The position numbers and the translations under genes were made by a program. The notes beneath the pieces were generated by a model that saw only the letters and a list, made by a program, of their open reading frames with translations, searched no databases and was not told the origin of the DNA. DNA of 64,000 nt from an uncultured delta proteobacterium (GTDB lineage Bacteria > Desulfobacterota > Binatia > Bin18), in contig CAVTCR010000009.1 of assembly GCA_963733195.1 (NCBI GenBank), positions 120,255 to 184,254 of the forward strand, read 5' to 3'. Positions 12,310 through 43,360 of the stretch are shown here, piece by piece; the stretch's first letter is position 1; each line of letters starts with the position of its first letter.

Positions 12310-13906
12310 ATGCTATTTACTGAGTCTGCTGGTGAACATCGTCCAGTCTTTTATCACCCCAAAGGAGAGACGTCCCGACTCGTGACGTTGTCCGTGCCTG
12401 AGCGGCTCGACTACTTCACTCGTCTGCCGCTCTTTGAGAACATTCTCGATCAACTCTTTGAGAAGCGTCCAGTCGTCGCTGCGGACGGAAAGAAACAGAT
12501 TCGCGACCTGTCCGTGCGCGACGCACTCGTCGAACACGCCGAGTTCTATGAAGTCCCAGCCAACACTGCCGTCTTTCAGGAAGGCAGCTTTGGTGAGCAT
12601 CTCTTCATCGTTCTTAAAGGCACCGTCCGCACCAGCACCCATGTCTCCTTGGATAACGAGCGTAAGGCCGCCGTCAGGCTGGAAGATCTCAAGGATGGGG
12701 CGTTTTTTGGCGAAATGTCGGCACTATCGATGAATGCCCATCTGCTCACTGCCGAAACCGTCACACCGACGTTCTTGTTGCTCGTCCCGCAATTTATCGT
12801 CCAAGAGCTCGCGACACTCCAGGAACCACCTCTTCCTTCGATTCCTCGATTCCCCGATTTTCGCAGTCTGATTATGCAGGAGTACGTGCGGCGAGCCGTG
12901 CAAACCCTGATCCGCCGTATCCCAATGCTTCGCTTCACTTCCGACAACGACATTGCGAAGCTACTGACAAAAGTCGAGCTGAAGACCTTCGAGGCTGGAG
13001 ACATTATCTTTGAAGAAGGCGACCCGGCTGACGACTTGTACGTTATCCATCAAGGATTCATCAAAATCTCCAAACGTGACGAAACCAAGCAACGTATCCT
13101 GAGTTATCTGAGCGAAGGGGATTGTTTTGGTGAGACCGGGGTTCTTGCCAACGCGCCTCGTTCGGCCAGTGCCACGGCTATGAGTCGGACTGAATTACTG
13201 GTTGTGCCCGGCCCACAATTTCAATTGCTCGTGAATGCCAATCCACAAGCGATTCAAGAAAGTCGTGGAGTCGCAAACCTGCGCCGCTTGGACGCTGATA
13301 TGGCACAGGACGTTACCTTTATTGGGGTACGGTTGCAGTTTCAAGCCGAGGTCATGCCTAACCTCGATGTCCTGGCGATCGACGAGACGCTGTGTGTCCG
13401 CTGCGATAACTGTGTGAAAGCCTGCGCTGCCGCCCATGATGATGGGATCTCCCGCTTAATCCGCAAGGGCACTATTTTTCAGGAAATGTTACTGCCCACC
13501 GCCTGCCGCTTCTGCCAAGACCCAGTGTGTCTCTTATGTAAGTCTGGCGGGATCAAGCGTGACAAAGATGGGGATATCTACTTCACTGACAGTTGTATCG
13601 GTTGTAGTGGGTGCGCCCAGCGGTGCCCGTACGGCAACATCATTATGGTCGATACCGAGGAGCTAGAGCATTTGACACGGCCAACTTTAGCTGATCAGCT
13701 CTTTCGCATTGGCGCCCAAAAACGCGAGGAAGAGATCCCCACAGAGCAAACGACCGCGGTTGAAGAAGGTGCCGGTGAAGTGCGACCTCGACAAAGGCCA
13801 TCTCTTTCCCGCATGTGTGAATAACTGCCCGACCCAAGCGATTAGACGTTATCGTGCCGATGAGCTTGATGTCATCATCGCCGGGCAACGTAACAAAAAG
13901 TCCTAA
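12310..13906 (+). CDS. Tandem cNMP-binding domains + DmsB/NrfC-type multi-[4Fe-4S] domain (frameshift near 13720-13760; true C-terminus in ORF 13709-13906)
   Basis: Two cNMP folds (FFGEMSA; CFGETGVLANAPRSASA); Cys groups CVRCDNCVKAC, CRFCQDPVCLLC, CIGCSGCAQRCP; fourth group KCDLDKGHLFPACVNNCP in the +1 frame. Confidence 0.85.
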
Positions 13907-13929
13907 CGCGTGCAGTAGAAGAGGAGTGT

Positions 13930-15003
13930 ATGCGGTCACCCGCACGTTGGTACGTCGTCGCGTCGATACTTGTAGCTCTGTTGAACCTTGCCTATTACTA
14001 CCATTACACCACCCACTTGGTTGGCCCGCCTTCGGGCCGCACGTTTGAAGGGTTGTTGCTGGGGAATCTTGGGTTTGCCGCCATGCTCGGCGCACTCCTC
14101 TACAGCGTACGCCGTCGCTTCTTGAGCCGCGCCATGAACGCGATCCGTGTGGACCCAGACACACGGCGCAAACTCAAGGAAGGGGAACGACATGCACTTG
14201 AGCAGTTACAGAATCTGCAGCGACAGGTCATGCAGAATGCCGCGCTACGCGTGTCTGCCGTCCGTCGCCAAGCCAGCGGCATCCTTCGCCAGACCGGTAT
14301 GAAGCGCTACCTGTATGCTCAGGTTTCCGCTGGACCTGGGGGACGCGGCACACGCCTGTCCATTGGCCGACGCGAATGGGGTGGCCGTCTCCAGACCTGG
14401 TACTACTGGCATCTGATGTTAGGGTGTTTGTCGATTCTGTTGATTCTCACCCACGCCGGGTTTCGTTTCGGTAACCTTGTCGCTGTGCTTGCACTCGTCT
14501 GTCTAATTGGCGTGGTTGCGACGGGGATCTGGGGGTACATCATTTATCAACTCATACCCACCGCACTGACCAAGGTTGAAGAACGGGTCGAAAAGACTCC
14601 CGAAGAGTTGCGCGACGAATTACAGGAAGTGAATCGAAGGTTGGCCACTATCACCCAAAAGAAATCGCAGATCTTTCATGAGATCTATCAACAAGAAGCA
14701 GCGATACCGGGAGTGAGTCTCGAACCCACGTGGCGTTGGTTATGGGCACCGGCAGAAATTGCCCGCGACACGACCCGTCCAGATCGTCTGCGCCTGATTG
14801 TCAAAGAAATCCCCAGCCCCGAACAAGAAGATTTCCGCGAAATGGTCCGGTTACTCTTCCAGAAGGAAAAACTTGAGGTCTCACTCTACCCGCAACTGCG
14901 GTATGATTATCTGCTGAAGATCTGGCTCAGCCTGCATATTCCGCTGACTGCTGGGCTGATGATCTTTTCACTAATCCACATTGTATCGATCCTCCACTAC
15001 TGA
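13930..15003 (+). CDS. Integral membrane protein, putative di-heme b (ferric-reductase-like TM domain)
   Basis: About 5 hydrophobic segments; two H-x13-H pairs (HLMLGCLSILLILTH, HIPLTAGLMIFSLIH). Confidence 0.7.
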   Translation: MRSPARWYVVASILVALLNLAYYYHYTTHLVGPPSGRTFEGLLLGNLGFAAMLGALLYSVRRRFLSRAMNAIRVDPDTRRKLKEGERHALEQLQNLQRQVMQNAALRVSAVRRQASGILRQTGMKRYLYAQVSAGPGGRGTRLSIGRREWGGRLQTWYYWHLMLGCLSILLILTHAGFRFGNLVAVLALVCLIGVVATGIWGYIIYQLIPTALTKVEERVEKTPEELRDELQEVNRRLATITQKKSQIFHEIYQQEAAIPGVSLEPTWRWLWAPAEIARDTTRPDRLRLIVKEIPSPEQEDFREMVRLLFQKEKLEVSLYPQLRYDYLLKIWLSLHIPLTAGLMIFSLIHIVSILHY

Positions 15004-15023
15004 TCGCACAAGGGGCAGAGCCC

Positions 15024-18000
15024 ATGATCAAGCTCACGATACTGACCGGAACAGACGCAGGGAAAGAGATCACGCCAGCAAGTGATCCGATTATCCTTGG
15101 ACGGAGTAGCACCTGCACGATCGTGCTCCATGATGCGGCAGCATCTCGGCGTCATTCCAGTATTGAACGGCGCGGGACCGACTATGTGTTGACCGACTTG
15201 CAAAGCGGCAACGGCACGTTTGTCAACTCACCCGGAACTCGGATTCACGCACCATATACGCTGCAGGATGGTGACGAAATCCTCATCGGGAAAAGTCGTG
15301 TCCGTATCGGATTATTTATACAAGCCGAAGAAGACGAAGCAGCGAAAGTCCCCGTACAGCCATCCTCAGCGGCGATCTCTACAGGTTCCGCACAAGTTGA
15401 CACGACCTCCGGGACAGAACTCGCTCAGCCTGTCCAAATACCTCCACCCGCCGCTGATGCAGGACTCAATGCCGTCCATCAACCGGATGTGCCGATCGTC
15501 GTCACCATCGTCAGTGGTCCAAACCGCGGTATGGTCTACTCTCCAGCCCGCGAGGTATTTTCCATTGGGCGTGCAACTACGTGTGATATTGCACTGACCG
15601 ATTCCACCGCCTCACGTGTGCACGCCACCATCAAACGGGAAGCAGGGAAATATCGCCTTTACGACGAGAATAGCGTCAACGGTGTCTATCTGCGCACTCC
15701 GCAAAATCGTGTCTATCATGCAGATCTGGCTGACGGCGATACGATTTATATTGGCCAGAACCAGTTACGCGTAGAAATTTCTCTGACGCCACCACCCATC
15801 GCGACGGGTAACGAGGATGCCACACGGATCTCCGGTACCATTGGCGGGAAGAGTTTCACGTTCACTCTGAAAGCACTCGGCAGTAACGCGCGAGCAGCAC
15901 AGACGGACGAGGCGACCCACTTGGTTACCGGACAAAGCGGCGCGACTACGCCCGAAGAAGCAACCAGTGACGTCCCCCAGTCTGTCGCGGCCCAGGGGGG
16001 GCCAAAAATTGCACTGCGAGTCATTGCGGGAAAGGATCAAGGAACTGTTTTCACACCTCCTCCAGGGTCAGATCGTTGTACGATTGGCCGCGGCGAACAA
16101 GCAAACTTTCGCTTACAGGACCGTGGGGCGTCGCGTATTCACTGCGCGATTGAGATTTCTCCTGCCGGATTTTTTCTGGTTGATGATGGCAGCCTCAACG
16201 GCACCTTTCTCAACCAGGCTACTGAGCGGGTCACGCGCGTGGCCCTCAAGGGCGGAGAAGAGATTCAGCTTGCCGATACTCGTCTGAAGGTCGAGATAAC
16301 ACCGCCAGAAGGTGCAGCAGCAGCCGAGGGCGTTAGCGAGGAAAAGACAGCACACGTCCCATACCATGCACCACCCGCTCCACCATCTGCAACACCGAGC
16401 GAACCAGCACCGATCGTCCTTGTGCAACCCGCAACTGAGAACGTCAGATCGCGGTCTGCAGCATTCAAAGATCGCCTAGCAACCATCGCCAAACAGAATG
16501 GTGTCACACTCCGACCGTTCACCGTTCCTGGAACACCCCGGCAGTGGGTAGCGCTTGCCTTGATGTTGTTGGCAGCACTCAGTTCGTATGGGTTCGCAGT
16601 GCTCGGTCGACAAGCGTATTTTTCTGGTGGCCCCATTTCGGAAAGTCACGCTAAACTTGAGCAGCAATGCACGTCGTGTCATCCAACGTGGGGTCTCCAG
16701 CCAGTGAATGCCACGTGCGCTGCAACAGACTGTCACGCTGATGTATTGAAGGTTAAAGACAATACTCGCGACGACTGCGTGAGTTGTCATACCGAACACC
16801 GGGGCCGTACCTTCGCGATCAAGGGTGGGGAAGCCCAGTGTTGGAGCTGTCATAAAGCTGGGATGAACGTTCGCGCCTATGCCTCTCGCCCGATGGGCGT
16901 ATACCACACTCAGGTATTCTCTGTAGCTGAACAGCTTGTTCCACAACCAGGCAAGGTTCCTACCCAAGGAATCCAGCCAGCCGCGCTAATGACTGCTCGC
17001 GAGACCTGGCTGAAAGATTTCACCGCTCAACCGACTGGACTCAAATATGCCCATGCAGCACACGCGGCGGATGTTTTAGAAAAGAACAAAAAGCAGGAAC
17101 AGTGTCTGGATTGCCACGTCAAGTTGCTGGATGGGCAGTTCACACCGTTCCCAACTCACGCCCAGTGCATTGACTGTCACAAAGAAGTTGCCAACCAAGA
17201 TCCACAGGTCGCAAAAGCAAGTGCCTCGGAGAAGTGTTTACTGTGCCACACCCAAAAGGACGGCGGTATCACCCGTGTGAAACAGGACGTAAATTTTGTC
17301 GCCTTCCAACATACCGATCATGGGCAAATGCGTTGTGTACAGTGTCATGCTGTAGTGACGGCTGAGACGGAGTATCGTCCGGTGCTGCGCTCCGCAGCCG
17401 CATACCCGATGCCGATGGACGCCTGTTATTCTTGCCATCAAGACAAGAAAGTCACAATCGCATGTTTGGACTGCCATCGCCAACATCACAGCTATCCGTC
17501 AACCACTGACTTAGTCCAAGGATGGTTCGGCAACCTTCCTTTCAGCAGCGTCTTACTCACCTTCGTCGGACTGGTCGGCGCGATGGGCGCATATACGTAT
17601 ATGGATATGCGCCTTGCACGTCGCTGGTTAGCCTCGCTCGAAGAACCTCCAGCTGCCCCTGCCGGCGGTGCAGCAGCAGGCTCCGCTGCTCAGGGTGCTG
17701 CCGGAGTCCCGCCACCACCTCCGCCAGCTGGTGAAGGCGGCGTGCTCCCCTACCCAACTGTTGATGCCGCTACCTGTATTTCATGTAGCAGTTGCTATGA
17801 CTCGTGCCCAACCAACGTCTTGGAAGGTGACCACACAACACACAAGTCTACGGTAGTCAATCCTAATGCGTGCATATCGCTCACCGAAGGTTGCACTATC
17901 TGTCAGGACGGCTGTCCGACCGGCGCGATTCGCGTCACGACCGCACCGTTAGTGAAGGAAGTCGAACGTCCACAGACTGACCAACATAACGAAAGCAACC

Positions 18001-18932
18001 TTCCTGGAGTCTTCTTGGTTGGAGAAGTCATCGGAGCCGCGCTCGTCAAGAAAGCAGTCAACCAAGGTGACCAAACCATTCGTTATATCGGTAACCGCAA
18101 ACCTCGTATTGCCGAAGCGCAGTATGATGTCATCATCGTTGGTGCCGGCCCTGGTGGACTTGCGGCTGGGCTCGAAGCAAAACGGCTGGGGCTGCGGTAC
18201 CTCATTCTCGAGCGTGAGAGCATTGCCAGCACGATTCAGAACTATCCCCGCGATAAAGCTGTGCTAGCCGAACCGGTGTTGTTGTCTATCTACGGCTTGC
18301 TGCCAATGATGGATGCAAAGAAAGAAGCCTTGGTCTCTTTGTGGGAGGAGATTGTTCGCAAAAGCGATCTCCAGGTCAACGTTCGTGAGGAAGTTACCGA
18401 AGTAAAGAAAGTCAGTAATCTGTTTACAGTAACGACGGTTAAAGGATCGTATCAGGGTGCGTATGTTGTTCTGGCGACCGGAACCCGTGGCAACCCGCGC
18501 AAGATTGGAGTTAAAGGCGAGGACAATCCCAAGGTCACCTATAACCTTATCGATGCTGCGGAATGGAAAGGGAAGAACGTGCTTGTAGTCGGTGGCGGTG
18601 ATAGTGCAATTGAAGCTGCGGTCGCTTTGTCGAACGAACCGGGGACGACGGTGACGTTGTCCTATCGGCGCGGAGAATTCAGCCGCGTTAAGCCACGCAA
18701 TGAGCAAGCAATTAAAGAACAAGCAAAAGCAGGGCGACTGACCTTGCTGTTTAACTCCAGCGTCACCGACATTAGCGACAAAACAGTCAAGATCAAAGTC
18801 GGTGATGAAGTACGAGAGCTAGAGAACGACGCCGTCTTTGCACTGATCGGCGCCGATCCGCCGAAGGCTTGGTTAGAAAAGATGGGGGTTAACTTTGTGA
18901 TCGTGAAAGAAACCGTCGGCGGTGGGTGGTAG
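15024..18932 (+). CDS. Fusion: 3x FHA - TM - multiheme cytochrome c - TM - 2x[4Fe-4S] ferredoxin - FAD/NADPH oxidoreductase (TrxR/YpdA/FNR-like)
   Basis: Three GR..SRxH..NG FHA signatures; 9 CxxCH + CAATDCH between two TM helices; CISCSSCYDSCP and CxxxxxxCTICQDGCP; GAGPGG, GGGDSA, SYRR. Confidence 0.9.
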   Translation: MIKLTILTGTDAGKEITPASDPIILGRSSTCTIVLHDAAASRRHSSIERRGTDYVLTDLQSGNGTFVNSPGTRIHAPYTLQDGDEILIGKSRVRIGLFIQAEEDEAAKVPVQPSSAAISTGSAQVDTTSGTELAQPVQIPPPAADAGLNAVHQPDVPIVVTIVSGPNRGMVYSPAREVFSIGRATTCDIALTDSTASRVHATIKREAGKYRLYDENSVNGVYLRTPQNRVYHADLADGDTIYIGQNQLRVEISLTPPPIATGNEDATRISGTIGGKSFTFTLKALGSNARAAQTDEATHLVTGQSGATTPEEATSDVPQSVAAQGGPKIALRVIAGKDQGTVFTPPPGSDRCTIGRGEQANFRLQDRGASRIHCAIEISPAGFFLVDDGSLNGTFLNQATERVTRVALKGGEEIQLADTRLKVEITPPEGAAAAEGVSEEKTAHVPYHAPPAPPSATPSEPAPIVLVQPATENVRSRSAAFKDRLATIAKQNGVTLRPFTVPGTPRQWVALALMLLAALSSYGFAVLGRQAYFSGGPISESHAKLEQQCTSCHPTWGLQPVNATCAATDCHADVLKVKDNTRDDCVSCHTEHRGRTFAIKGGEAQCWSCHKAGMNVRAYASRPMGVYHTQVFSVAEQLVPQPGKVPTQGIQPAALMTARETWLKDFTAQPTGLKYAHAAHAADVLEKNKKQEQCLDCHVKLLDGQFTPFPTHAQCIDCHKEVANQDPQVAKASASEKCLLCHTQKDGGITRVKQDVNFVAFQHTDHGQMRCVQCHAVVTAETEYRPVLRSAAAYPMPMDACYSCHQDKKVTIACLDCHRQHHSYPSTTDLVQGWFGNLPFSSVLLTFVGLVGAMGAYTYMDMRLARRWLASLEEPPAAPAGGAAAGSAAQGAAGVPPPPPPAGEGGVLPYPTVDAATCISCSSCYDSCPTNVLEGDHTTHKSTVVNPNACISLTEGCTICQDGCPTGAIRVTTAPLVKEVERPQTDQHNESNLPGVFLVGEVIGAALVKKAVNQGDQTIRYIGNRKPRIAEAQYDVIIVGAGPGGLAAGLEAKRLGLRYLILERESIASTIQNYPRDKAVLAEPVLLSIYGLLPMMDAKKEALVSLWEEIVRKSDLQVNVREEVTEVKKVSNLFTVTTVKGSYQGAYVVLATGTRGNPRKIGVKGEDNPKVTYNLIDAAEWKGKNVLVVGGGDSAIEAAVALSNEPGTTVTLSYRRGEFSRVKPRNEQAIKEQAKAGRLTLLFNSSVTDISDKTVKIKVGDEVRELENDAVFALIGADPPKAWLEKMGVNFVIVKETVGGGW

Positions 18933-19011
18933 TTCGATCTGTTGTCCCAAACAACGAAAATCAGCGGAGAGAATCGAGGGGAGGATTTTGGCGGTTGTCA
19001 TACGGGAGCCT

Positions 19012-19608
19012 TTATGCAAAGAGATTGCGCACAGGTAATTGCAATTGCGGGAGAACCACAGACGTCAGCGTATCACCCGTGCGGAACAAGAGTGGTGCGC
19101 CATAGCAGCCATTCACTAAACGGAACATCGTGACTTCCCGACGGTCTGTGTCTACTAACCAATATTCGTCGACTCCATTACGTTCGTAGATGGCTTTCTT
19201 CTCAGTGCGATCACGTAACGCAGTTGGTGTTGAAAGGATCTCTACGACTAGGTTCGGAGCAATCTCCAAAAACTTTCCACGGCGTGGAGTAGGGCCCGCC
19301 TGCAGTCGAGCGTAGGAGATAAAAGACACATCTGGTTCAAGAGTATCGCCTGACGGGAGACGATAGCCGGCACTTGACCCAAACACCTCTCCCAACTGAT
19401 ATTGAGAGGCACAGTTGAAGAGCGGAGAAACAATTCGTGCTTCGGTATTGGCATGCGGCCAGCCAGCAGGTGGAGTCATGACAATACTCCCGTTCAGCAG
19501 TTCGTAATGATTCGTATCGGAGTGTGGCAGTTCACTGAGCCACTCTTCAAACTCATCTTGAGTGAATGTTTCGGTAGAAACGAACGCAGTCTGTGGCATA
19601 ATGTACAC
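19012..19608 (-). CDS. Uma2 family (PD-(D/E)xK-like) endonuclease domain protein
   Basis: YELLNG, EPDVSF, PNLVVEILS, KKAIYERNGVDEYWLVD. Confidence 0.9.
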   Translation of the reverse strand: MYIMPQTAFVSTETFTQDEFEEWLSELPHSDTNHYELLNGSIVMTPPAGWPHANTEARIVSPLFNCASQYQLGEVFGSSAGYRLPSGDTLEPDVSFISYARLQAGPTPRRGKFLEIAPNLVVEILSTPTALRDRTEKKAIYERNGVDEYWLVDTDRREVTMFRLVNGCYGAPLLFRTGDTLTSVVLPQLQLPVRNLFA

Positions 19609-19702
19609 CAGCAGGGAAAATTTTCAGACGTTACTGTAGCACGAGAGCCCAAAGGCGGACAGATGCGAGGAATTCACTATCAGCCCTGAGAAGAGGTGCG
19701 AC

Positions 19703-19817
19703 GTCATTCCGGGCGAGCACCGCGAGACCCGGAATCCAGGAGCTTGAAGCAGAGGCCTCCGGTGAGTACGCCTGGATTCCTGGCAGGCACCCCTGGCGGC
19801 TTTGTCCGCCAGGGGTT
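19703..19817. repeat. GTCATTCC-type REP/REPIN-like element plus GC hairpin
   Basis: GTCATTCCGGG..CCCGGAATCCAG..CTGGATTCC; hairpin ACCCCTGGCGG/CCGCCAGGGGT; same family as 32736-32815. Confidence 0.65.
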
Positions 19818-20643: not shown

Positions 20644-20653
20644 CAAACAGGAA

Positions 20654-21870
20654 CTATCGCCGTCGGGCGATACGACCACCATCGCTTTTTTCTAGTGTCA
20701 CTTCTTTAGGTGGCAATGAGAGAGTCTTGCCGTCGATCGTATCGACTCTGGTAAAACGTACGACCGCTCGGTTGCTTTCGCTACGTACGTTGATGTCTTT
20801 GAACGATACCCTGTAGCTTTTGTAACCATCCAAGATACCCTTGAGCTTCGCAGCATCCTGCGCCGAGACCTCACCAAGCTGTACGAGCACGTCAACATTC
20901 TTATTTTCCCATGCCTGGCGATAGGTCGTTTCAAGCCAGTTCATCGCCTCTTGTTGGCTCAACGTCGCGGTTGGTGACTCGATCTTAGGAGGAGGCAGTG
21001 GTGGTGGTTGAGGTCGGGCTACTTCGATAGCTTTGACTTCAACCGTCCAACGTTTTGCCGCACTCTGCAATCCGTCCGGAGCAACAGCAATAGCAGACAA
21101 CTGATAGGTGCCAGGCCTGGTCTCGGCGAAACGAAACCGTCCACTATCCGTGCGCTGTGGACGAGCATCATTGATACTCCACAAATAACTCAGTTCTTTT
21201 CTCGTGCCTCCAGATACGCCAGTGATCTCTGCTGTTACGGTAAAATCGACCGGTTTCCCGGCGTCGACAGTGAGACTGGTGTCCCCAGGGTCAACATCGA
21301 TAATACGAGGCGGGACAGCCAGAACCTTCGGCGTCACGTTCCACGCCACTTGTACCTTCTTGTCTGCTTTATCAACCACCTCAACTTTCACCGCGTGTGA
21401 CGCATCAGAAATGGATGCCGGGAGTTGCCAACTCCGACTCTCGCCTCGAGCCACCTCTTGGCCATCAAGCGACCAAACATAGACGAGGCGATCATCTTTA
21501 TCGGGGTCGGAGGCCTGTACGGTAAAGCTTTGCTCTTCACCAGCTGTCATTTGAACAGAACCAGCTTTTGGTGAAACACTGGTAATAACCGGCGGACGTG
21601 GGGTGTCCTGCACCCGCACAGTCCAGATCTTCTCAAGCGGAGCATTCTTGCCATCCGAAATTACCGCTTTAACTTCTCGAACTCGGTCCCCACCATCGTC
21701 ATACCCCGGTTGATAGGTCCACTTCTTTCCGTCTGTTTGTTTCTTGCCATCAAGAAGCCAGGCAAACTTGAGTGACTGCGGCTGCGCACTCTCCGCATCT
21801 ACCACGAAAGGCAAGTTGCTTCCCTTCAGCAACTGTCATTTCACCTGTTGTCATCTGGTTTCGCTGGAGT
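20654..21870 (-). CDS. Ig/PKD-like repeats + C-terminal NTF2-like domain; probable extracytoplasmic C-terminus of the upstream kinase
   Basis: Three WxLDG/WSIND beta-sandwich repeats (e.g. ASDPDKDDRLVYVWSLDG); no own signal peptide; directly follows the kinase TM helix and a garbled linker. Confidence 0.65.
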
Positions 21871-21889
21871 CAGCTTTGGCGGCGGCGAT

Positions 21890-22140
21890 ACAATTCGGCT
21901 TCAGCCTGTTCAGGCTTTGCTTGCCGGCTTTGGCTTGTCTATTTAGCTGCTCGGCTTTCGGTCGTTCTAGCTTTCGCTTAGCTTGTCGGCTTAGTGGTTC
22001 GTTGGCTTGCTCGCTTTCGCTGGTCGAGGTTCGGCGGGCTCGGCTTTCGATCGTTCGGCTGGTCAGCCTTGGCTTGTCCGCTTTAGCGTGCGCTAGGTCT
22101 AGCCTGTTCGCTTTACTTGTCGGCGGCTTGGTTCTACTTT
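21890..22140 (-). repeat. Low-complexity ~15-bp coding repeat (KAEQA/KAEQP-like linker), indel-ridden
   Basis: Minus strand shows repeated AAAGCCGAGC/AAGCC units between the kinase TM and the Ig domains. Confidence 0.55.
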
Positions 22141-29847: not shown

Positions 29848-29860
29848 AGGAGAAACACTA

Positions 29861-30475: not shown

Positions 30476-30481
30476 GGAGAG

Positions 30482-32735: not shown

Positions 32736-32815
32736 CGTCATTCCCGCGCAAGCGGGAATCCAGTTTTCTGCCCCTGGATTCCGGGTCGCGGCCTGCGGCC
32801 TTGCCCGGAATGACG
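32736..32815. repeat. GTCATTCC-type REPIN-like inverted doublet
   Basis: CGTCATTCCCGC..GCGGGAATCCAG-spacer-CTGGATTCCGGG..CCCGGAATGACG. Confidence 0.75.
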
Positions 32816-34238: not shown

Positions 34239-34402
34239 TCGCGAGAACACACGGAGCACCGCATACTTTCTCCAGACAAACCGTCGCACTTCAGGTGATT
34301 CCCTGAGGGCTTCTCATATACAGTGTTTCACTTTGCGCTAGTTCACCAATTGTGCTACGCTGCCTTGACTAGCGTACCGGGTGGGTAGGGAGGAAAACAA
34401 TT

Positions 34403-36063
34403 ATGTTGAGAATACGGCTCATGGCTGGGGCTCTGTTTGCTCTGCTCCTTGCATACGGTTTTAGTCTTCCCTCCTTCGCGGCTGCACAGGCTTGCGACCC
34501 TGCAACCCCTCCACTGTGCGCCAGTGAAGTACAAGCAATAATCAATCGCGCCATCACTATACTTGATCAGCCAATGGTTGTTGCTGTGGTTGATAGAGTC
34601 GGTAACCCTCTTGGGGTATTCCGCAAGACTGGAGCCCCGTTACAAGTGGCGGGGAATTTCTCTGGTGAATCGTTACTCAACAACCCACTCTACGACGCCG
34701 GCGAAGTTGCGGTCTCGCTCGCCCGGACGGCGGCGTTTTTTAGCCATAATCAAGCTCCACTCTCTTCTCGTACGGTGCGGTTTATTAGCGGAGTCCATTT
34801 TCCTCCAGGCGTCTTGTTCACACCGAACGCCGCTTTATATGGCATCGAGAACACCAATCGTGGCTGTGACTTCAATGCCACCTTCAACCCGGGCAAGGAG
34901 GTGCCGCGCGCTAAAGCGCCCTGAATGGTTTGCCATGTAACAGTACCGATCGTCGTGGATGTAGCCTTGGCATCACAACCGGAAAATTGAATTTCTTTGA
35001 TAATGACTCCACTGCCGTGAATCCCGGTGGCATTCCAATATACAAGGGGAATACCGAAGTCGGTGGCGTCGGAGTCGTGGGAAATTTCTCTGGCGCTACT
35101 GCCGAACTGGTAGCGTTGGGTGCAGCGTTTCTTCCCCCTGGCACGAGTGTCCTTCCAGTTCCAGCCTTCTTTACCAAGGATTTGCGCGAACGGGTGTTTA
35201 TCGACGGGATTCGTTTACCCTTTGTGAATCTTGATGTCCCAAAAATCGTGAAGCAGATTCGCAAAGGTAAAGTGCCCAAGGGCCTCAAAATCGACCCGGC
35301 CCCGACAGGAGAGTTTATTCTTCCCCCTCAGGACGGTCAGTGTTTTGATCGCGAGGAGAACAATGGTGTGTGTCGGGCTGCTCCGGAAGGATATCTGATC
35401 GGCCCTAATGCCGGCTCGAAACTCACACAAGCAGAAGTTGATCAGATCGTCCAGAATGCAGTTGAAACCGCTGACGCTACCCGTGCGGTCATTCGTTTCC
35501 CGCGTGGAGTGCGGACAAAAATGATGGTTTCCGTCGCTGATGTAGACGGCACGCTCTTGGCGGTCTATCGCATGCCAGACGCAACAATCTTCAGCATCGA
35601 TGTCGCAACCGCAAAGTCGCGGAACGTTATTTATTTCAGTGGACCGAGAACTAACGTTCGCAATGATCTCCCTCAGGTGCCAGAAGGTACATCGATTAGT
35701 AACCGCACGCTGAGTTTTGGTAGCCAACCCCTCTATCCACCAGGTATCGATACCGGTGGGGAAGGGCCTTTTTTCCGCACCCTCTATATTCCTGACTCCC
35801 TCACTCCCTGCACCCAAGGTACCCAGCCAACCAATCCGAATCAAAGTGGCATTGTCTTTTTCCCTGGCAGTCTTCCGTTGTTCAGAAACGGGGAAGTCAT
35901 TGGCGGCCTTGGGATTAGTGGTGATGGGGTGGAACAAGACGATTTTGTCACTGTTGGTGGAGCGATCGGCTTTGACCCGCCTAATAAGATCCGGGCTGAT
36001 CAGTTCTTTATTCGTGGCGCCCGTCTGGCATATCTCAAGTTTCCCAGAAACGCCGAGCGATAA
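34403..36063 (+). CDS. Secreted tandem GlcG/HbpS heme-binding protein (frameshift ~34920)
   Basis: Signal peptide; VAVVDRVG..PGGIPIYKG..VGGVGV and VSVADVDG..KSR..PGSLPLFRNGEVIGGLGISGD. Confidence 0.8.
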
Positions 36064-36102
36064 TACCGATGTCTCCGGTTGCGGCGAGATGAGGGGGTTG
36101 TG

Positions 36103-38113
36103 ATGCGCGTACGAAAATCAGAGAAGGCAAAGTGGAGAAGAGTAGTGTGTATTATGCTCTCGCTTTTCCCTCTTGTCGCTGCCCACGAGAGCTGGAGCGC
36201 GGAACCCAGCACCCCAACTCTTGTTATTAACCGTGGGTTACCGATTTATACGTCCGACGTCTCACCGCGTCTGCATGGGACCTCAACCGCGGCTAAAGGT
36301 TCGCGCGTCGTTGCCATGATCGGTAAAACGACTGCGTCGACGGTCGTCTTGGCGGGAAACACCTGGATTCTTGATTGGCCTGAGGTCTTACCGGCGGGAA
36401 ATTATAAACTTGATAGTGACCGTCACTGACACCAACGGCACGACCACAAGTGCGACACAAACGATCACCGTCAGTGGTCCAGGTCGCGCAGTTCGCCGCC
36501 CGCTCCTCTCTCCTCCAGATGAATTTAACCCGGTACCGCTCGATGAATCGGCTGAAGCCGACTTTCAAGCCACAACCGATCGCTGGCGTATTATTCCACC
36601 TCCCTACGAAGTCAACGTTAAGGGCAGCCTGTGGGACCCCTATAATCAAAACGTCTTGAAAGGTGATTATCCGGTCTGGGGACAAGATGTTTTCCTAAAC
36701 CTCACTGGTTCATGGGATACGCTTGTCGAGGTGCGCAAGACACCGGTGCCAAGCGGTCCCAGTAGTGAACGGGCAGGCAGCGCTCAGTTTTTAGGGAATG
36801 ATACACAATTTCTGTTGAATCAAAACTTCACGCTATCCGCTGATCTCTTCAAAGGCGATACCGCCTTCAAACCTTTTGACTGGCGTGCAAAATTCACGTT
36901 CATCGGCAACATTAATTATACTCACGTCGAAGAGCGGGGCGTCCTGTTTCCCGATGTTCGTAGAGGGATTGACCGGACCGATGGTACGCCTGCTTTACAA
37001 GAAGCTTTTGTCGAAGCCAAACTTGCAGATCTGAGCCCGAATTATGATTTTGTTTCTATTCGCGCCGGTATTCAGCCATTCAATAGTGACTTCAAAGGAT
37101 TCGTATTCTCCGACCAGACACTTGGTGTTCGTCTGTTCGGCAACTACAACAACAATTTAGACCAGTACAATTTGGTGTACTTCGACCGTTTGGAAAAAGA
37201 TACGAACAGTGGCCTTAATCGCTACCGCTTACGCGATCAAAAACTACTGATCGCCAACTACTATCGACAAGACTTTCTCGTCAAAGGTTACACGACTCAG
37301 TTCAGCATCCATCAACTGTGGGAAGGAAAGACATTTCACTTCGATCAAAATGATTTTCTCGTGCGCCCAGATCCGATTGGCTCGTTTCGTGAGCACGCGA
37401 TTAACGCAACGTATTTAGGCTGGACCAGTTTCGGCCATGTTGAACGGATCAATATCGACTCAGCGTTCTATTACGTTCTTGGCCATGATACGCGGAATCC
37501 AATCGCCGGTCGTAGTATTGATATTGCTGCCTACATGGGTGCCCTCGAATTATCAATCGATCGCGACTGGCTACGCCCGAAAATTTCCTATTTTCACGCC
37601 TCTGGTGATGGTGACCCGCTTGATGGTACAGGTCACGGGTTTGACGCGATCTTTGATAACCCGTTGTTTGCTGGTGGTGGATTTAGTTACTGGAACCGCC
37701 TGGGCGTCAAGCTCACTGGTACTGGGGTGAATCTGGTCAATCGCGGGAGTCTGCTCCCCGATCTGCGCAGCAGCAAAGACGAAGGGCAACCAAATTTCGT
37801 CAACCCAGGTATCCATATTTTCAACGTCGGTCTTGATGCGGAATTCACGCCTAAGGTGAAAGGCATCTTTAATGCGAACTATATGTTCTTTGACACGACC
37901 AGACCGCTGAAGGTCGTTCTCCAGCAGAATCGTGTTGATGGTGAAATCGGTTGGGATCTGAGTGCTGGCATTCGTTATCGGCCCTATCTGAACAACAATG
38001 TGATTATTCTCGTAGGAACGGCGGTGTTTTTTCCTGGCAAAGGATTCAGTGACATCTTCGGTCAGAGGTCAACACAATTCCACAGTTTCAGCAACGTAAT
38101 TTTGACATTCTAG
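36103..38113 (+). CDS. Ig-like domain + outer-membrane beta-barrel (frameshift ~36408)
   Basis: Signal peptide; Ig strand PAGNY-NLIVTVTDTNG joins ORFs 36079 and 36371; amphipathic strands; terminal NVILTF. Confidence 0.7.
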
Positions 38114-38121
38114 GGGGGAGA

Positions 38122-41100
38122 TTGGGGATGCTATCGCCATCACAATCCTGGTTCATCCGGTCAGGAGGAGGTTTAGCTCTCGCTGCAATCCTCATTTCGT
38201 TCGTCACCCTCATCGCCTGGACCCCGTCTTCTGGTGAGCAAGCAACGCGTACAGCAGCAACTCCCCAGAAGCCACCACAACCTGAGTTGATGTTGCAATC
38301 ACAAGCAGAGGTCGATCAGAAAAGTGCAGGTTGTGTCAGCTGTCATCAGGGAATTGAGCCTATGCACGCCTCACCAGCAGTGCGGCTTGGTTGCACCGAT
38401 TGTCATGGCGGCAATAGCCAGGCCGGCGTTGTGGCTGGAAGTTCGCAAGACGCGGCGGCTTATGAACAAGTGAAGAATCAGGCCCATGTCCAACCCCGGC
38501 ATCCTGAATTCTGGCAAAAAGACGGGAAACCAACCTCAGCGAATCCGGAACGGACGTATACACGTCTCCTCAAAGAGTCTGCGGAGTTTATCCGTTTCAT
38601 TAATCCCGGCGACCTGCGGATCGCCGATGAGACCTGCGGCTCGTGTCATCAAGCACAAGTCAACGCCACCAAGAAGAGCCCAATGACCACCTCTTCAATT
38701 TTCTGGGCAGCGGCTGGATACGCGAATGGAATTCTTTCGACCAAGCACGCAATCGTTGGCGAAGCTTATATGCGAGACGGTGAGGCTGCTGCAATTATAC
38801 CGAAGACTCCGCCAACAGAAGAAGAGCTGAAGAAAGGCGTTCTCCCTTCTCTCCTGCCCCTGCCCCGTTGGGAAGCATTGCAACCGGCAGATAATTTTCG
38901 TGCTTTTGAAGATGGCGGATTACTCCAACCCTCCGCATTTCCAGAAATCGGCAACCCGAATCTGACCGATGATTCCGGCAAGCCAGACATTCGCTTGAGT
39001 AGCCGAGGACCAGGCACTGGTCTTCGCGTTAGTATTCCAGTACTGAATCTTCACAAAACACGCCTGAATGATCCGCATTTGTCGCTGTTGGGGACCAATG
39101 ATCATCCAGGTGATTATCGTTCCAGTGGTTGTACGGGGTGTCATGTCGTCTATGCCAACGACCGCGATCCGGTACGATCAGGCCCGTATGCGCAGTTCGG
39201 CCATCTCGGAAAAAGCTTCACCAATGATCCAACTATTCCGAAAGACGAATCTGGTCATCCGATTCGTCACCGCCTCACCCGAGCGATTCCGTCGAGCCAA
39301 TGCATGGTCTGTCACATGCACCAGCCGAATCAGTTCGTCAACACGTATTACGGTTTCAACATGTGGGATTATGAATCTGACGGTGAGTTCCTGTGGCCCA
39401 AGGAGCAGAAGGATCCCACAGAAAAAGAGAAACGGATTAGTTTGGAACACAATCCAGAAGCCGCAGCAGCGCGCGGGTTGTGGACGAACAGAGACTTTCT
39501 CGCCAAAGTCAGCGAGTTAAATCCACAACTGAAGCACACCCAGTTTTCCGACTATCACGGTCACGGCTGGGTATTCAAAGCGGCATACAAACGCGACCGC
39601 AAAGGTAATCTCCTCGACAAGAACGGTAAGATCGTCCCATTCGGAGATCCCCAATGGGCGAAGAAAGCCGTTCACCTCATGGATATCCATTTAGAAAAAG
39701 GCATGCATTGCGTGGATTGCCACTTCACGGTTGATGCCCATGGTGGCGGTGGCAAGCTCTTGGGTGAGTATGCTGATGCAATAGAGATTGGTTGCGAGGA
39801 TTGTCACGGTACCACGAAAGCACGTGCAACCCTGCGAACCAGTGGACCAGCCTCGCCGCTCGGTGGTAATGACTTGTCTGTTGGTACCACCCCCTATGGC
39901 CGTCAACGCTTCGCGTGGCGCGACGGAAAGCTCTTCCAACGTTCGATGGTTAACAAAGATATGGAGTGGGAAGTTCGACAGGTTCTCGATAGTATCACTC
40001 CTGGTAACCCCCACTACAATGAGAAAGCACGCTTGGCCAAAACCATTCAACGCGACAACAAAACCTGGGGGCGCGGTGATATCGAGGAAGCCAAATTGGC
40101 CCACTCGAATGACAAGATGACCTGCTTCACTTGTCACAGCTCGTGGATGACGTCGTGTTTTGGCTGCCACCTGCCGCAGGAAGCCAACGTTAAAGCCGAG
40201 CGACTGCATTATGAAGGTGGTGATACCCGCCAGTATAGCTCGTATAATCCACAAGTCGTACGTGAAGATATTTACATGATCGGTATTCACGGTACCGATA
40301 AGAATCACCGTATCGCACCGGTTCGTTCTTCCAGTGCGCTCATCCTCAGTTCAGTCAACCTCAATCGCCAACGCTTCTATATCCAACAGCCGCCGATCTC
40401 GACCCCAGGTTACAGCAGTCAGGCGTTTAATACCCATTTCCCCCATACTGTTCGCACAACCGAAACAAAAGCCTGTACCGACTGTCACATCTCGCAGCAA
40501 AATGACAACAATGCCTGGATGACGCAGTTGCTCACGCTGGGCACGAACTTCGTCAATTTCATGGGACGCCACGCTTGGGTCGCCATTGGTGAAGAAGGAT
40601 TTGAGGCGATCGGAGTCACGGAGTGGGAAGAGCCGCAAGCAGTGATTGGTAGCTATCTCCACAAACTCGCCTACCCAGCCAACTACAAGGCACATCAGGA
40701 TCATGAACTTGAGCTAAAGGAAGCTCGTCATCATCATGGTCGCAGTCAGGTGCTGCAAATCGAGAAACGTGGAGAATACCTCTACGCTGCACTCGGCTCG
40801 AAAGGAATGGAAGCGTTCGATATTGCCAACGTTGATAACAAGGACTTTTCCGAACGGGTTGTGACAGCGCCGGTCTCACCATTGGGCCAACGTACCTACG
40901 TGCGTACCAAATACGCCACAGCAGTTGCATTGCCGACCAATATGCCGATCGCACCGTATCGTAAGCTTGAGCCGGACAATGAAGAACAGCCCTGGCATCC
41001 GTTGTATCACTACGCGTATGTCAGTGACCGCGAGGAAGGACTGATCCTCGTCAACACTGATACCTTGGCCGACCGCGACCCAGCCAACAATTTCTTCGAG

Positions 41101-41943
41101 CGCAACTTAACCTTCAATCCCGATAATGCCCTCAAAGGAGCGGAAACTCTGACCGTTGCTGGGACCTCGGTCTACATCGGTTGTGATCGTGGCTTAGTGG
41201 TCGTGGACATCAATCAACCACTTACACCACGCATCATTGCTGAAGTGCCGCTGGTCAAACCAAGATCGATCACCGTGCAGTTTCGTTACGCGTTTGTCAT
41301 TGATGCCGAAGGCCTGAAAGTCCTTGACGTAACCAATCCTGCAACTCCCAAAGTCGTTGGGCAAGTAGCAATCCAAGGCGCACGTACGGTGTATGTCGCT
41401 CGTACCTATGCTTACGTTGCCGCCGGATCACAAGGTATCGTCATTGTCGATGTCGAACGTCCTGATAAACCAGTCATTGATCAAGTGTACAACGCTGAGG
41501 GGAAAATCAATGACGCGCACGACGTCAAGGTGGCATCGACGAATGCCAGTTTGTTTGCCTATGTCGCTGACGGTCACAATGGTCTCCGTGTGTTGCAACT
41601 CACCTCACCAGAAACCGTACCTGGATACTTAGGATTTAGTCCGCGCCCGGCTCCACGGCTGATTGCGACCCGTCATACCGACGGCCCAGCCCTTTTTATT
41701 GCCAAGGGTTTAGATCGTGACCGAGCGGTCGATGAGAGTGGTAATCAGGTCAGTGTTTTTAACCGGATTGGGGCGCGGCCGTTCAATCTCCACGAAATGC
41801 AGAGGATGTACCTCCGTGACGGTCAGATCTTCCAGGTCAGCGATACACCACCTGGACCACCGCTACGGATACGGACTGAAACGAAAGAAGACACCGGTAA
41901 ACAAGTTTCTGAGGAAAAGGCAACGATCAAACGCGAGGGTTGA
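38122..41943 (+). CDS. Large decaheme cytochrome c with C-terminal LVIVD-repeat propeller
   Basis: N-terminal hydrophobic anchor; 10 CxxCH; repeats GLVVVDINQP, GLKVLDVTNP, GIVIVDVERP, GLRVLQLTSP. Confidence 0.88.
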   Translation: MGMLSPSQSWFIRSGGGLALAAILISFVTLIAWTPSSGEQATRTAATPQKPPQPELMLQSQAEVDQKSAGCVSCHQGIEPMHASPAVRLGCTDCHGGNSQAGVVAGSSQDAAAYEQVKNQAHVQPRHPEFWQKDGKPTSANPERTYTRLLKESAEFIRFINPGDLRIADETCGSCHQAQVNATKKSPMTTSSIFWAAAGYANGILSTKHAIVGEAYMRDGEAAAIIPKTPPTEEELKKGVLPSLLPLPRWEALQPADNFRAFEDGGLLQPSAFPEIGNPNLTDDSGKPDIRLSSRGPGTGLRVSIPVLNLHKTRLNDPHLSLLGTNDHPGDYRSSGCTGCHVVYANDRDPVRSGPYAQFGHLGKSFTNDPTIPKDESGHPIRHRLTRAIPSSQCMVCHMHQPNQFVNTYYGFNMWDYESDGEFLWPKEQKDPTEKEKRISLEHNPEAAAARGLWTNRDFLAKVSELNPQLKHTQFSDYHGHGWVFKAAYKRDRKGNLLDKNGKIVPFGDPQWAKKAVHLMDIHLEKGMHCVDCHFTVDAHGGGGKLLGEYADAIEIGCEDCHGTTKARATLRTSGPASPLGGNDLSVGTTPYGRQRFAWRDGKLFQRSMVNKDMEWEVRQVLDSITPGNPHYNEKARLAKTIQRDNKTWGRGDIEEAKLAHSNDKMTCFTCHSSWMTSCFGCHLPQEANVKAERLHYEGGDTRQYSSYNPQVVREDIYMIGIHGTDKNHRIAPVRSSSALILSSVNLNRQRFYIQQPPISTPGYSSQAFNTHFPHTVRTTETKACTDCHISQQNDNNAWMTQLLTLGTNFVNFMGRHAWVAIGEEGFEAIGVTEWEEPQAVIGSYLHKLAYPANYKAHQDHELELKEARHHHGRSQVLQIEKRGEYLYAALGSKGMEAFDIANVDNKDFSERVVTAPVSPLGQRTYVRTKYATAVALPTNMPIAPYRKLEPDNEEQPWHPLYHYAYVSDREEGLILVNTDTLADRDPANNFFERNLTFNPDNALKGAETLTVAGTSVYIGCDRGLVVVDINQPLTPRIIAEVPLVKPRSITVQFRYAFVIDAEGLKVLDVTNPATPKVVGQVAIQGARTVYVARTYAYVAAGSQGIVIVDVERPDKPVIDQVYNAEGKINDAHDVKVASTNASLFAYVADGHNGLRVLQLTSPETVPGYLGFSPRPAPRLIATRHTDGPALFIAKGLDRDRAVDESGNQVSVFNRIGARPFNLHEMQRMYLRDGQIFQVSDTPPGPPLRIRTETKEDTGKQVSEEKATIKREG

Positions 41944-43360
41944 GAGTTATGTTGCGAGAAAATCGAGTGGCTCGTTTCAGTACGGTTCTTGCCGTCTATG
42001 TGGTCCTCTCAATGAGCAGCGTGTCGTCGCTCAACGCCCAGGAGGCTGAACAAGTAGCTCCGCCTCCACCTGCCGCAGATACTCCTCCAGCTGCGGCGCT
42101 GGAAACGCCGCCACTGAAAGTTGGGCAATATGTCGGTGCTGCTACCTGCGCGTCTGGTACCTGTCATGGCAGTGTTGAGCCACGCGACCTCTACAAGGTC
42201 AAGCAGAATGAATATTTCATTTGGCTAAAACAAGACCGCCACACCCAAGCATATAACGTCCTGTTGACTGACAAATCCGCGCGTATCATGCGCAACCTGA
42301 AAATCAAAACCAAAGCCAACGAAAGCAAAATCTGTCTCGATTGCCATGCGATGAATGTTCCCAAAAGCGTACAGGCTGTCGCCATCGACTTTGCTGAAGG
42401 CATTTCATGTGAAGCCTGTCACGGGCCAGCCGGCGGCTGGCTTGCACAACATACGGCTGAAGGGTGGACACATGAAAAGTCCGTACAAGCGGGAATGCGA
42501 GATTTACGAGGCTTAGATAATCGAGCGAAAAATTGTTTAGCGTGTCACCTGGGTGATGCGACGAAAACGGTCAATCATGATTTGATTGCAGCTGGCCATC
42601 CGGACATGATTTTTGAACTCGATAATTACACTGCGGTTATGCCACCGCATTGGACACCGAATACCACCAAAAGCAAACAAAGTGGCGATATCGAGCCAAC
42701 CGGCGCTAAAGCGTGGGCAGTGGGGCAAGCAGCCTCGTTCCGTGAAGGTATGCTGCAGATGGCACGGCGCGCACGGTCAAATCATTGGCCTGAATTTGCT
42801 GACATGAATTGTTACGCGTGTCATCATTCCCTGAAAGATTCCGAGTGGCGACAGAATCGTGGCTATCGTCACAAGACTGGTGGTCCACCGTGGAACCCGG
42901 CTCGCTATGCAGTGTTGAAACACCTTGTCGCAACCTTTGCTCCCCGAGTGAAAAAGCGCGGCTTGATTCACAAGTAGATCGTTTAGCGGGACAGATCGCA
43001 GAGCTGAGTACACCACCGGCAACAGTCGCAGCTACAGCTTCGGATCTCGCCAATACCATCGGGCGGGTCATCCCCAGTATCGAGAAAGCAGATTTTGATA
43101 ATGCGGCAGCTAAGCGAATTATCGATCGTATTGCTGGTGACGTGCCATATCTTGTCGAGTCGGAAGTTCACTCAGTTGAGCAGGCGATCATGGCGATCAA
43201 TGCATTGGTTAATGCGATGGCACGCAACAATCCGGCTATTGTACAGACGTCAGTCTCGCAAGCGATTGATCAACTCTATGACGACGTGAAAGACCGAGAG
43301 AACTTTAATCGCGAACAGTTTGGGCGACACGTCGCAGAGTTGCAAAGACAGTTGCGGTAG
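41940..43360 (+). CDS. Cytochrome c554/c552-like multiheme protein (frameshift in C-run ~42945)
   Basis: YVGAATCASGTCH, CLDCH, EGISCEACHGP, CLACH, CYACH; helical tail continues in the frame ending 43360. Confidence 0.82.

Follow-up and report, generated by a model that had tools for sequence, protein, structure and literature searches.

We analysed a 64,000-nt window from an uncultured member of the Binatia (contig CAVTCR010000009.1 of assembly GCA_963733195.1; the source genome comprises 6.9 Mb in 87 contigs) which carries, at 12310-43360, a gene cluster for multihaem cytochromes, a membrane protein with paired histidines, flavin and Fe-S domains and signalling proteins. Open reading frames (ORFs) were listed and searched with Pfam and NCBIfam, haem motifs were counted, and the window proteins were compared with fetched loci of other genomes by tblastn to follow synteny; no Rfam family matched anywhere in the window. 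All of the envelope parts listed in the initial annotation are present in the cluster, including two H-x13-H pairs and a total of 35 haem motifs. Judged by its sequence, the region belongs with the PCC4/Ptd-type multihaem clusters, a kind named from genomes alone, as a variant specific to its lineage. New in it are a triple-FHA fusion protein, a recurrent kinase/PP2C pair, decahaem-LVIVD and HbpS-like members, and a recurrent oxidative pentose-phosphate neighbour.

The cluster begins with an inner module of three genes. The first (12310-13824; + strand, as are all genes below unless stated otherwise) encodes a cytoplasmic, PtdE-like Fe-S protein with two cyclic nucleotide (cNMP)-binding domains (cNMP_binding, E 1.1e-37), Fer4 motifs and three Cys clusters. 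The FGE...PRSA phosphate-binding cassette is kept in the second cNMP domain and not in the first, leaving one canonical copy intact. Its Fer4_11 match scores 23.4 bits, under the 26.2-bit cut-off, and that of the homologue in genome G206 scores 39.7 bits. The second gene (13930-15003) encodes a PtdF-like inner-membrane protein (IMP), a putative di-haem b protein with about five transmembrane (TM) helices and two His motifs, W157-x3-H161-x13-H175 on TM3 and W332-x3-H336-x13-H350 on TM5. An alignment of 45 sequences shows no variation at H161, H175 and H336 and at least 90% conservation of H350; W157 and W332 are both conserved, and the TM4 stretch T198-G199-I-W-G202, with G199 and G202 invariant, agrees with an SGxxG motif. 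Relatives of the IMP number 1204 (phmmer, 1.84 billion representatives), and its AlphaFold2 (AF2) model has a pLDDT of 89.4. It is most likely, given these residues, that the IMP binds two b haems via its four conserved histidines.

The third gene (15024-18932) is a single ORF for a fusion protein of 1302 aa, in which three FHA domains are followed by a TM helix (508-526), ten c haems (549-818), a second TM helix (838-856), a ferredoxin (Fer4, 909-970) and a flavoprotein (Pyr_redox_3, about 1032-1291). The haem domain has nine CXXCH motifs and one CX4CH, the Fer4 region is a 2[4Fe-4S] ferredoxin, and the flavoprotein (E 5.5e-50 over residues 1037-1289) resembles thioredoxin reductase (TrxR)/YpdA but is without the redox CxxC. 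The positions of the two TM helices would leave the haems on the periplasmic side of the membrane, with the FHA domains and the ferredoxin-flavoprotein facing the cytoplasm. Full-length homologues of the fusion form 19 clusters; in 18 such homologues the ten haem motifs, the eight Fe-S cysteines and both GxGxxG motifs are kept, and the Gly-Arg, Ser-x-x-His and Asn-Gly residues of FHA, which are present in all three domains, are invariant or nearly so. The linkers of the fusion carry two to five conserved copies of a [DE][DE]AT-x-x-hydrophobic motif, which we take, by analogy with FHA targets, to be candidate phospho-acceptor or docking sites. A scan of genome contigs with the fusion protein alone found at least two loci, one being the G001 contig; on the G001 and G008 contigs the fusion gene is present alone. 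Modelling of interacting pairs, which had been proposed as a check, was run for the IMP with fusion residues 495-870 and lends weak support to their association: the score was 0.57 against 0.30 for the best of three controls, at least 80% of contacts agreed between runs and partner pLDDT was at least 65. Of 80 solved complexes, 58 attain the mark used for such predictions, as do 2 of 110 mismatched pairs; only 7 of the 80 solved complexes, but both of the passing mismatches, attain it with a score of 0.60 or less.

The outer module starts with a secreted, PtdG-like decahaem cytochrome c (32973-34238; ten CXXCH, signal peptide), a paralogue of the haem domain in FHA-TM-decahaem proteins. Downstream lie a secreted HbpS/GlcG-like protein (34403-36063), which is a single ORF of ~560 aa in relatives and has EfgA and GlcG as PDB relatives; a PtdB-like protein with a signal peptide, an Ig-like (Big_13) domain and an outer-membrane barrel (36079-38113); a 1273-aa decahaem cytochrome (ten CXXCH) with a C-terminal LVIVD beta-propeller (38122-41943); and a PtdD-like, c554-like tetra/pentahaem cytochrome (41940-43360) with a signal peptide and, in 41940-42977, four CXXCH motifs and one CX4CH. 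The AF2 model of the barrel at 36371-38113 has 18 long strands (pLDDT 74.8), with AlgE as its best PDB match (E 5.9e-18). The initial annotation had counted two barrels, and it is this one that stands. The other, a probable outer-membrane barrel of the Phenol_MetA_deg type (28477-29847; signal peptide, in-frame TGA at 28651), is a lead only: 28753-29847 has an atlas score of 0.97-0.98 to Phenol_MetA_deg clusters, and a 25% identical homologue in G234 matches PF13557 at E 3.2e-6. Homologues of this gene adjoin core genes in G234, G005, G007 and G014.

The LVIVD decahaem adjoins the barrel throughout the fetched loci and has at least 8000 homologue clusters at E<=1e-20, the best 120 of which are 61-86% identical to it; Nitrospirota and Thermoanaerobaculia are named as sources of its homologues. 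A sequence search of the PDB gave no match to it, and a literature search found no paper on this protein. Its best NCBIfam match, far under the cut-off, is to ExtM of a selenite/tellurite reduction operon. These properties raise the possibility that electrons from NAD(P)H go no farther than the periplasm and that the propeller protein is itself an enzyme, a periplasmic reductase whose substrate (an oxyanion, metalloid, N-oxide or peroxide) would enter through the AlgE-like channel, with the HbpS-like protein as an accessory or sensor. An 18-strand barrel is of the solute-channel type, the conservation of the LVIVD decahaem is unusual for a mere wire, the ExtM match fits, and the ORF and Pfam listing of the window shows no secretion system encoded in the cluster. 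The propeller, however, has no identified catalytic cofactor motif and no solved sequence relative, the Ig-like N-terminal domain of the barrel could dock a cytochrome, and small barrels can still conduct electrons, Cyc2 being an example. We give the enzyme reading a small but real chance, and it stays open because of the AlgE-like barrel and the extreme conservation of the LVIVD protein.

Linkage and domain fusions

The inner triad of cNMP-FeS protein, IMP and fusion protein is contiguous and co-directional in all eight of the other genomes with sufficient flank (G002, G010, G005, G007, G003, G066, G234 and G224). The outer block is adjacent to it in G002 and G010, where the order is that of the window, and in G007, where it is inverted; in G066, which belongs to a different family (42% identity), the outer block follows directly after the fusion gene on the same strand. 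In G234, ±20 kb of sequence showed no outer block but did have a decahaem gene directly upstream and other multihaem genes; the G005 contig likewise showed none and has other multihaem genes.

A survey of 251 genomes of the class, in which relatives are not independent of one another, found the barrel (E<=1e-10) in 39 genomes and the cNMP-FeS gene (E<=1e-25) in 41. The latter was present in 26 of the 39 barrel-positive genomes versus 15 of the 212 that are barrel-negative, counts which include the unpublished G197 (25/38 versus 15/212 without it), and in 17 of the 26 genomes having both genes the two lie on one contig within 25 kb. Ten extra genomes were examined, G121, G108, G206, G039, G028 and G100 having been chosen for hits sharing a contig and G086, G106, G156 and G147 only for their long contigs. 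All ten have the barrel. The HbpS-like gene was seen in all but G206, and the LVIVD gene in all but G100, whose contig stops inside the barrel gene. The outer genes adjoin a cNMP/Fe-S gene, a Pyr_redox_3 gene or both in 10/10, and an IMP homologue is found in four (G206, G086, G156 and G147). The question put by the initial annotation, whether the two blocks co-occur or fuse elsewhere, is thus answered positively by the survey, by the single strings of genes in G066 and G206, and by domain fusions. In G206 the string consists of a 799-aa protein with Pyr_redox_3, two cNMP domains and Fer4, then the IMP, an FHA-TM-decahaem protein, the barrel and the LVIVD decahaem.

The location of the flavoprotein varies by family: it is fused to the homologue of the cNMP-FeS protein in G206, G108, G100 and G028, and to the cytochrome in the family of the window. 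Proteins of ~745 aa, one of them from Engelhardtia mirabilis, join a ferredoxin and a flavoprotein to a C-terminal IMP domain with the His motifs, the relationship to the IMP being supported by hhalign probabilities of 98.7-98.9% (E 4e-16 and 4e-17). P0220 combines a polyferredoxin with an IMP domain, and P0188 an IMP domain with a NapC/c554-type multihaem domain. A match of PF01794 to P0068 was not reproduced at E<=1e-6, and the C-terminal domain of that protein belongs to the IMP family. Domain content, motifs, the logic of the topology, linkage and fusions can all be read directly from these genes.

Might the cluster be no more than two or three unrelated systems lying side by side in this lineage? 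Within the window, 14 kb separates the blocks, and this interval holds a Uma2 gene and poorly conserved ORFs. Against such a reading, adjacency persists through inversion (G007), compaction (G066 and G206) and reshuffling over at least ten families, and the co-occurrence in the class survey is hard to square with it. We consider chance juxtaposition scarcely credible.

Metagenome contigs were scanned by flavoprotein patterns only, which retrieved free-standing Fd-flavoprotein genes and no full-length fusions. On these contigs, TM-anchored Fd-flavoprotein genes stand beside IMP genes and genes for cytochromes of 11-35 haems, an arrangement that agrees with the description of PCC3 in the available passages of the paper that defined it (PMC5566968). 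It suggests a connection of PCC3, as well, to NAD(P)H and not to quinone. A phmmer search with the outer-block proteins gave no match among the ORFs of the metagenome loci, which use different outer components. Contigs L044, L048, L042, L057 and L039 are PCC3-like; they encode 15-35-haem cytochromes, secreted proteins of ~600 and ~300 aa without Pfam matches, and an IMP with a TM-anchored ferredoxin-flavoprotein gene beside it.

Relation to described clusters

The initial annotation knew of no characterised system with this architecture. The same gene set has in fact been described bioinformatically, as PCC4 and as ptdABCDEFG, and an FHA-nonahaem trio has been reported from Ferrigenium; it is because of these publications that we treat the window system as a variant of a described kind. 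Our literature search found no paper combining cNMP, thioredoxin-reductase-like and 4Fe-4S components. As far as the available passages of the paper go, PCC4 was first found in genomes of Fe(II) oxidisers and comprises a porin, 4-, 5- and 10-haem cytochromes, an Fe-S gene (pfam13247) and an IMP (He, Barco, Emerson and Roden, 2017; PMC5566968). The same work also defined PCC3 and proposed inward flow from an extracellular donor to quinone. It characterised the PCC3/PCC4 IMP by five TM helices, a (S/T)GxxG motif on TM4 and two copies of W-x3-H-x13-H, with the pfam13247 gene upstream. The window shares with PCC4 the porin, the tetrahaem and decahaem cytochromes, the Fe-S gene beside the IMP, additional redox genes and the exact IMP motifs. 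The third cytochrome of PCC4 is a pentahaem protein, however, whereas the window has the 1273-aa decahaem-LVIVD protein beside the barrel, and the FHA domains, the kinase/PP2C pair and the HbpS-like gene are features of the window that do not occur in the passages of that paper available to us. The paper also models inward flow to quinone, whereas fusions of the window type point to NAD(P)H and Fe-S.

The ptdABCDEFG cluster (bioRxiv 10.1101/2023.11.21.568154), the function of which is 'completely unknown' according to its authors, is described in the part of the preprint available to us as consisting of PtdA, a pentahaem protein with a beta-sandwich; PtdB, a porin; PtdC, an FAD/NAD(P) oxidoreductase; PtdD, a tetrahaem protein; PtdE, a cNMP/4Fe-4S protein; PtdF, a ferric-reductase-like membrane protein; and PtdG, a decahaem protein. 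Matched by these descriptions, counterparts of PtdB, PtdC, PtdD, PtdE, PtdF and PtdG are all present in the window. A PtdA-like pentahaem protein, likewise compared by description only, was not found, there being no five-haem ORF in the window. The window flavoprotein is not free-standing but fused with a ferredoxin, three FHA domains and a TM-anchored decahaem domain, and the kinase/PP2C, HbpS-like and LVIVD parts are additional to the Ptd set as described there.

A short paralogous system, on contigs G010:C18, G020:C30 and G014:C36, encodes proteins of 660-790 aa with three (in some, two) FHA domains, a TM helix, 8-9 haems and a second TM helix, and without the flavoprotein. Its genes are preceded by one for a 4-TM protein of 154-184 aa resembling TM3-4 of the IMP. 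The copy in G020 adjoins a kinase/PP2C pair, and that in G014 a Phenol_MetA_deg-like barrel.

In Ferrigenium straubiae, an FHA-nonahaem cytochrome with 5-TM and [4Fe-4S] neighbours was proposed to function in Fe(II) oxidation, and the accessible text of that preprint states that FHA domains had not been seen with multihaem cytochromes previously (bioRxiv 10.64898/2026.01.22.701106). By the description given there, the trio of a TM-anchored multihaem protein with a cytoplasmic FHA domain, a 5-TM protein that matches nothing in InterPro and a 4Fe-4S protein of the cytosol corresponds to the core of the window system and to the short paralogues. It is described with one FHA domain and differs from the window in being without the flavoprotein, cNMP domain, barrel and LVIVD protein.

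With the MtrCAB/Pcc conduits the window has in common periplasmic decahaem cytochromes beside an outer-membrane barrel, but the resemblance in sequence is slight: matches to decahem_SO score 20.9-32.3 bits versus a cut-off of 192, and those to DmsE/MtrA and MtrC are all sub-threshold. The window barrel is AlgE-like with 18 strands, and the input appears to be NAD(P)H and Fe-S rather than a quinol dehydrogenase. Because the barrel is of this kind and not an Mtr-like sheath, the step from barrel to LVIVD decahaem in the chain originally drawn for this DNA is left unproven. A second comparison is with the NOX/FRE proteins. In NOX, electrons from a flavoprotein that oxidises NAD(P)H in the cytoplasm cross the membrane through two bis-His b haems, under the control of phosphorylation. 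The shared logic would lie in the flavoprotein, in H-x13-H pairs on two helices and in control by phosphorylation, and single-chain fusions of Fd-flavoprotein and membrane domain exist. The window flavoprotein, however, is of the TrxR-like (Pyr_redox_3/YpdA) and not of the FNR-like kind, the path would include interposed Fe-S clusters, the membrane domain is built of five helices, and the acceptor would be a multihaem chain and not O2. For PF01794 on the IMP there is no Pfam match and no specific match by Foldseek or VIA-align; the spacing of the histidines is all that they have in common.

Proposed electron flow and its control

On balance we lean, by no wide measure, towards reading the whole as a PCC4/Ptd-type variant that forms an NAD(P)H-to-multihaem chain across the envelope, gated by phosphothreonine and cNMP. 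Electrons would pass from NAD(P)H through FAD and Fe-S to the inner and then the outer b haem of the IMP, on to the ten c haems of the fusion, and from these by way of periplasmic cytochromes to the decahaem-propeller protein, which would be located at the outer-membrane channel or close to it. Such a path would bypass the quinone pool. Outward flow would run downhill and with the membrane potential, draining both NADPH and the proton-motive force, and a drain of this kind would fit heavy gating. The adjacent receptor Ser/Thr kinase would write, and the PP2C phosphatase erase, phosphothreonine marks to be read by the three FHA domains, the candidate marks being the [DE][DE]AT-x-x-hydrophobic motifs in the linkers of the fusion itself, and the Fe-S subunit would read cyclic nucleotide. 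NADPH specificity, the terminal substrate and what the barrel does are further points that we infer.

The genes for these putative writers and erasers lie between the two modules on the - strand. They encode a PKD-like ectodomain (20654-21832), which in the window is a separate ORF out of frame with the kinase; a Ser/Thr protein kinase (22099-27384) in which helical repeats occupy ~1400 aa after the N-terminal Pkinase domain, with a TM helix at 1715-1733; and a PP2C-type protein phosphatase identified by Pfam (27401-28186). In G010, G005 and G007 the PKD ectodomain and the kinase form one ORF. The window, G002, G010, G005, G007 and G234 have kinase and PP2C genes no more than 10 kb from the fusion gene, a kinase-like gene is found ~5 kb past the LVIVD gene in G066, and FHA domains are also carried by the decahaem protein in G206, G100 and G028. 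The control by FHA, kinase and cNMP that was originally suggested therefore keeps its parts, in that the binding residues and one cNMP cassette are intact and kinase/PP2C genes recur near the FHA versions, while the switching itself is something we infer.

So many signalling domains in one cluster (three FHA and two cNMP domains, PP2C, and a receptor kinase that has a PKD ectodomain) are unusual and also admit the idea that the haem chain is a sensing device, reporting the redox state of the periplasm or the cell exterior to the FHA/kinase/PP2C/cNMP apparatus; HbpS-like proteins are, moreover, known as redox or ligand sensors, HbpS itself acting with SenS. A sensor would nevertheless need far less than some 35 haems, as many as five Fe-S clusters and a flavoprotein whose NAD(P)H and FAD motifs are conserved, and versions of the cluster without FHA or kinase exist. 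We think this very unlikely.

For an NAD(P)H-driven chain the genes next door may be relevant. An operon directly upstream of the cluster and co-directional with it (5-12201) holds a complete oxidative and non-oxidative pentose-phosphate set, with genes for transketolase, a Tal-PGI fusion, 6-phosphogluconate dehydrogenase (6PGD), glucose-6-phosphate dehydrogenase (G6PD), glucokinase, a GH63-like hydrolase, 6-phosphogluconolactonase and a HAD phosphatase. 6PGD and G6PD (4034-6754; Pfam) would be a possible supply of NADPH, and from this neighbourhood it is possible that the operon fuels the cluster. Pentose-phosphate genes also adjoin the cluster in five genomes of four families, in differing arrangements: as neighbours in G002 and G010, at both ends in G066, in G206 in a divergent operon that lies at a distance of 3.4 kb and has GH63 next to it, and as a G6PD gene 3 kb from the flavoprotein in G152.

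Published models differ from ours in the direction of flow. Electrons could instead be taken up, the outer module oxidising an extracellular or periplasmic donor such as Fe(II), Mn(II) or humics and passing electrons by way of c haems and the di-haem IMP to the quinone pool or to cytoplasmic Fe-S and NAD(P)+. As far as the available parts of the papers show, the published hypotheses for PCC3/PCC4 (PMC5566968) and for Ferrigenium (Fe(II) oxidation) take this inward direction, and genomes of Fe(II) oxidisers are where PCC4 was first found. The IMP is, in addition, weakly like quinone-reactive proteins of the cytochrome b561/HydC type. The fusions of the membrane domain to ferredoxin-flavoprotein and to polyferredoxin, by contrast, indicate a cytoplasmic partner and not quinone, and the G6PD/6PGD neighbours fit consumption of NADPH. 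The reduction of NAD(P)+, at -0.32 V, by Fe(II)-type donors would be strongly uphill and against the inside-negative membrane potential, with no energy-coupling subunit encoded. Inward uptake is in our view unlikely. The outward direction is favoured because of thermodynamics and the membrane potential, the cytoplasmic Fd-flavoprotein fusions and the NADPH-producing neighbours.

Several points weigh against the outward, gated chain. Models published for the same family, in those passages available to us, run the opposite way, as set out above, and haem b loading, electron flow, its direction and the gating are all deduced from sequence. The IMP has no assigned Pfam family, matches to cytochrome b561/DUF4405 being sub-threshold; its structure model retrieved nothing from the PDB by Foldseek at E<=1e-3, and a wide VIA-align comparison gave only generic long-helix matches (Z<=8.8). 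In the flavoprotein, the second Arg of the Y-R-R motif for NADPH preference is not conserved. The 18-strand AlgE-like barrel is narrower than MtrB-type sheaths and for that reason may be a solute channel, and the N-terminus of the LVIVD decahaem has no lipobox cysteine. No kinase or PP2C gene was found in the stretches fetched from G108, G100, G028, G121, G086 and G106. The association with pentose-phosphate genes, finally, is recurrent and not universal: among the matches listed, G6PD lies 38-39 kb away in G093 and G156, more than 100 kb away in G121 and G183, and on another contig in several further genomes.

The state of the genes has also to be considered. Five genes, all within 21 kb, are frame-disrupted in the window assembly and whole in relatives, the sites being 21832-22099, 28651, 34914, 36410 and 42809-42977. 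The in-frame TGA at 28651 in the 28477-29847 barrel gene arises from two close indels, the HbpS-like gene is split by 2 extra nt near 34914 and the Ig-barrel gene by 1 extra nt near 36410, and the tetrahaem gene is split into 41940-42977 and 42809-43360 where G002, G010 and G007 have one ORF of 460-477 aa. The 6.6-kb inner triad, the decahaem gene and the LVIVD gene are intact despite the disruptions around them. If real, the disruptions would mean that the system is decaying in the source organism, which would count against the gated chain as a working device. We compared the region with contigs of independent soil and rhizosphere runs that are 90-99% alike. The extra 2 nt at 34914 are absent from the X1 and X2 contigs, the extra nucleotide at 36410 is absent from the contigs of X1, X2 and the RNA library X15, and an X5 contig is without 2 nt at 28660. 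Since contigs of other runs are free of the indels at three sites, the defects are either assembly errors or private to the strain. Contigs from the X15 soil metatranscriptome cover pieces of 34712-40014 and were considered as evidence of expression; they were rejected as such, since DNA carry-over is possible and contigs cannot show transcription.

It is tempting to go one step further and see in an outward, gated chain the principle of the phagocyte NADPH oxidase realised in bacteria with unrelated parts. NADPH electrons would be discharged across the whole envelope on demand and independently of quinone; the discharge would be fuelled by G6PD and 6PGD, switched by kinase/FHA and cNMP, and used by aerobic soil bacteria on an external target such as a metal, an oxidant or a competitor's molecule. 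We offer this as a speculation and hold it to be rather doubtful. Few uncharacterised multihaem proteins in environmental data are as conserved as the outer proteins. The window provides the most explicit wiring so far, in that fusions tie the membrane cytochrome to an NAD(P)H flavoprotein and not to quinone, and it adds a layer of Ser/Thr phosphorylation and a possible pentose-phosphate fuel line. If the NAD(P)H-to-multihaem reading is true, the cluster would represent a new bacterial route for moving reducing power out of the cytoplasm, with relevance to metal and redox cycling in soil, and a rare case of FHA/kinase control over an electron-transfer chain.

Intervening genes, repeats and flanks

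Between the fusion gene and the kinase block lies a gene for a Uma2-family endonuclease (19012-19608). No homologue was seen at the same place in the fetched loci of G002, G010, G005 and G007, and the gene is therefore probably a local insertion. Upstream of the decahaem gene, at 32736-32815, are two GC-rich hairpins, ATTCCC-N8-GGGAAT and ATTCCGGG...CCCGGAAT, which look like a widespread REP-like repeat, though one without an Rfam match; contig depth jumps to 186-484 over this stretch in three DNA runs, with many loose ends. Three ORFs at 29861-32355, one with a matrixin-like HExxH fragment, have 41-49% identity to their counterparts in G002 and G010 versus 65-90% for neighbouring genes, and are absent from the clusters of G007, G066 and G234. 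They are either fast-evolving or decaying genes, outside the core. Beyond 43.4 kb the window continues with housekeeping genes unrelated to the cluster.

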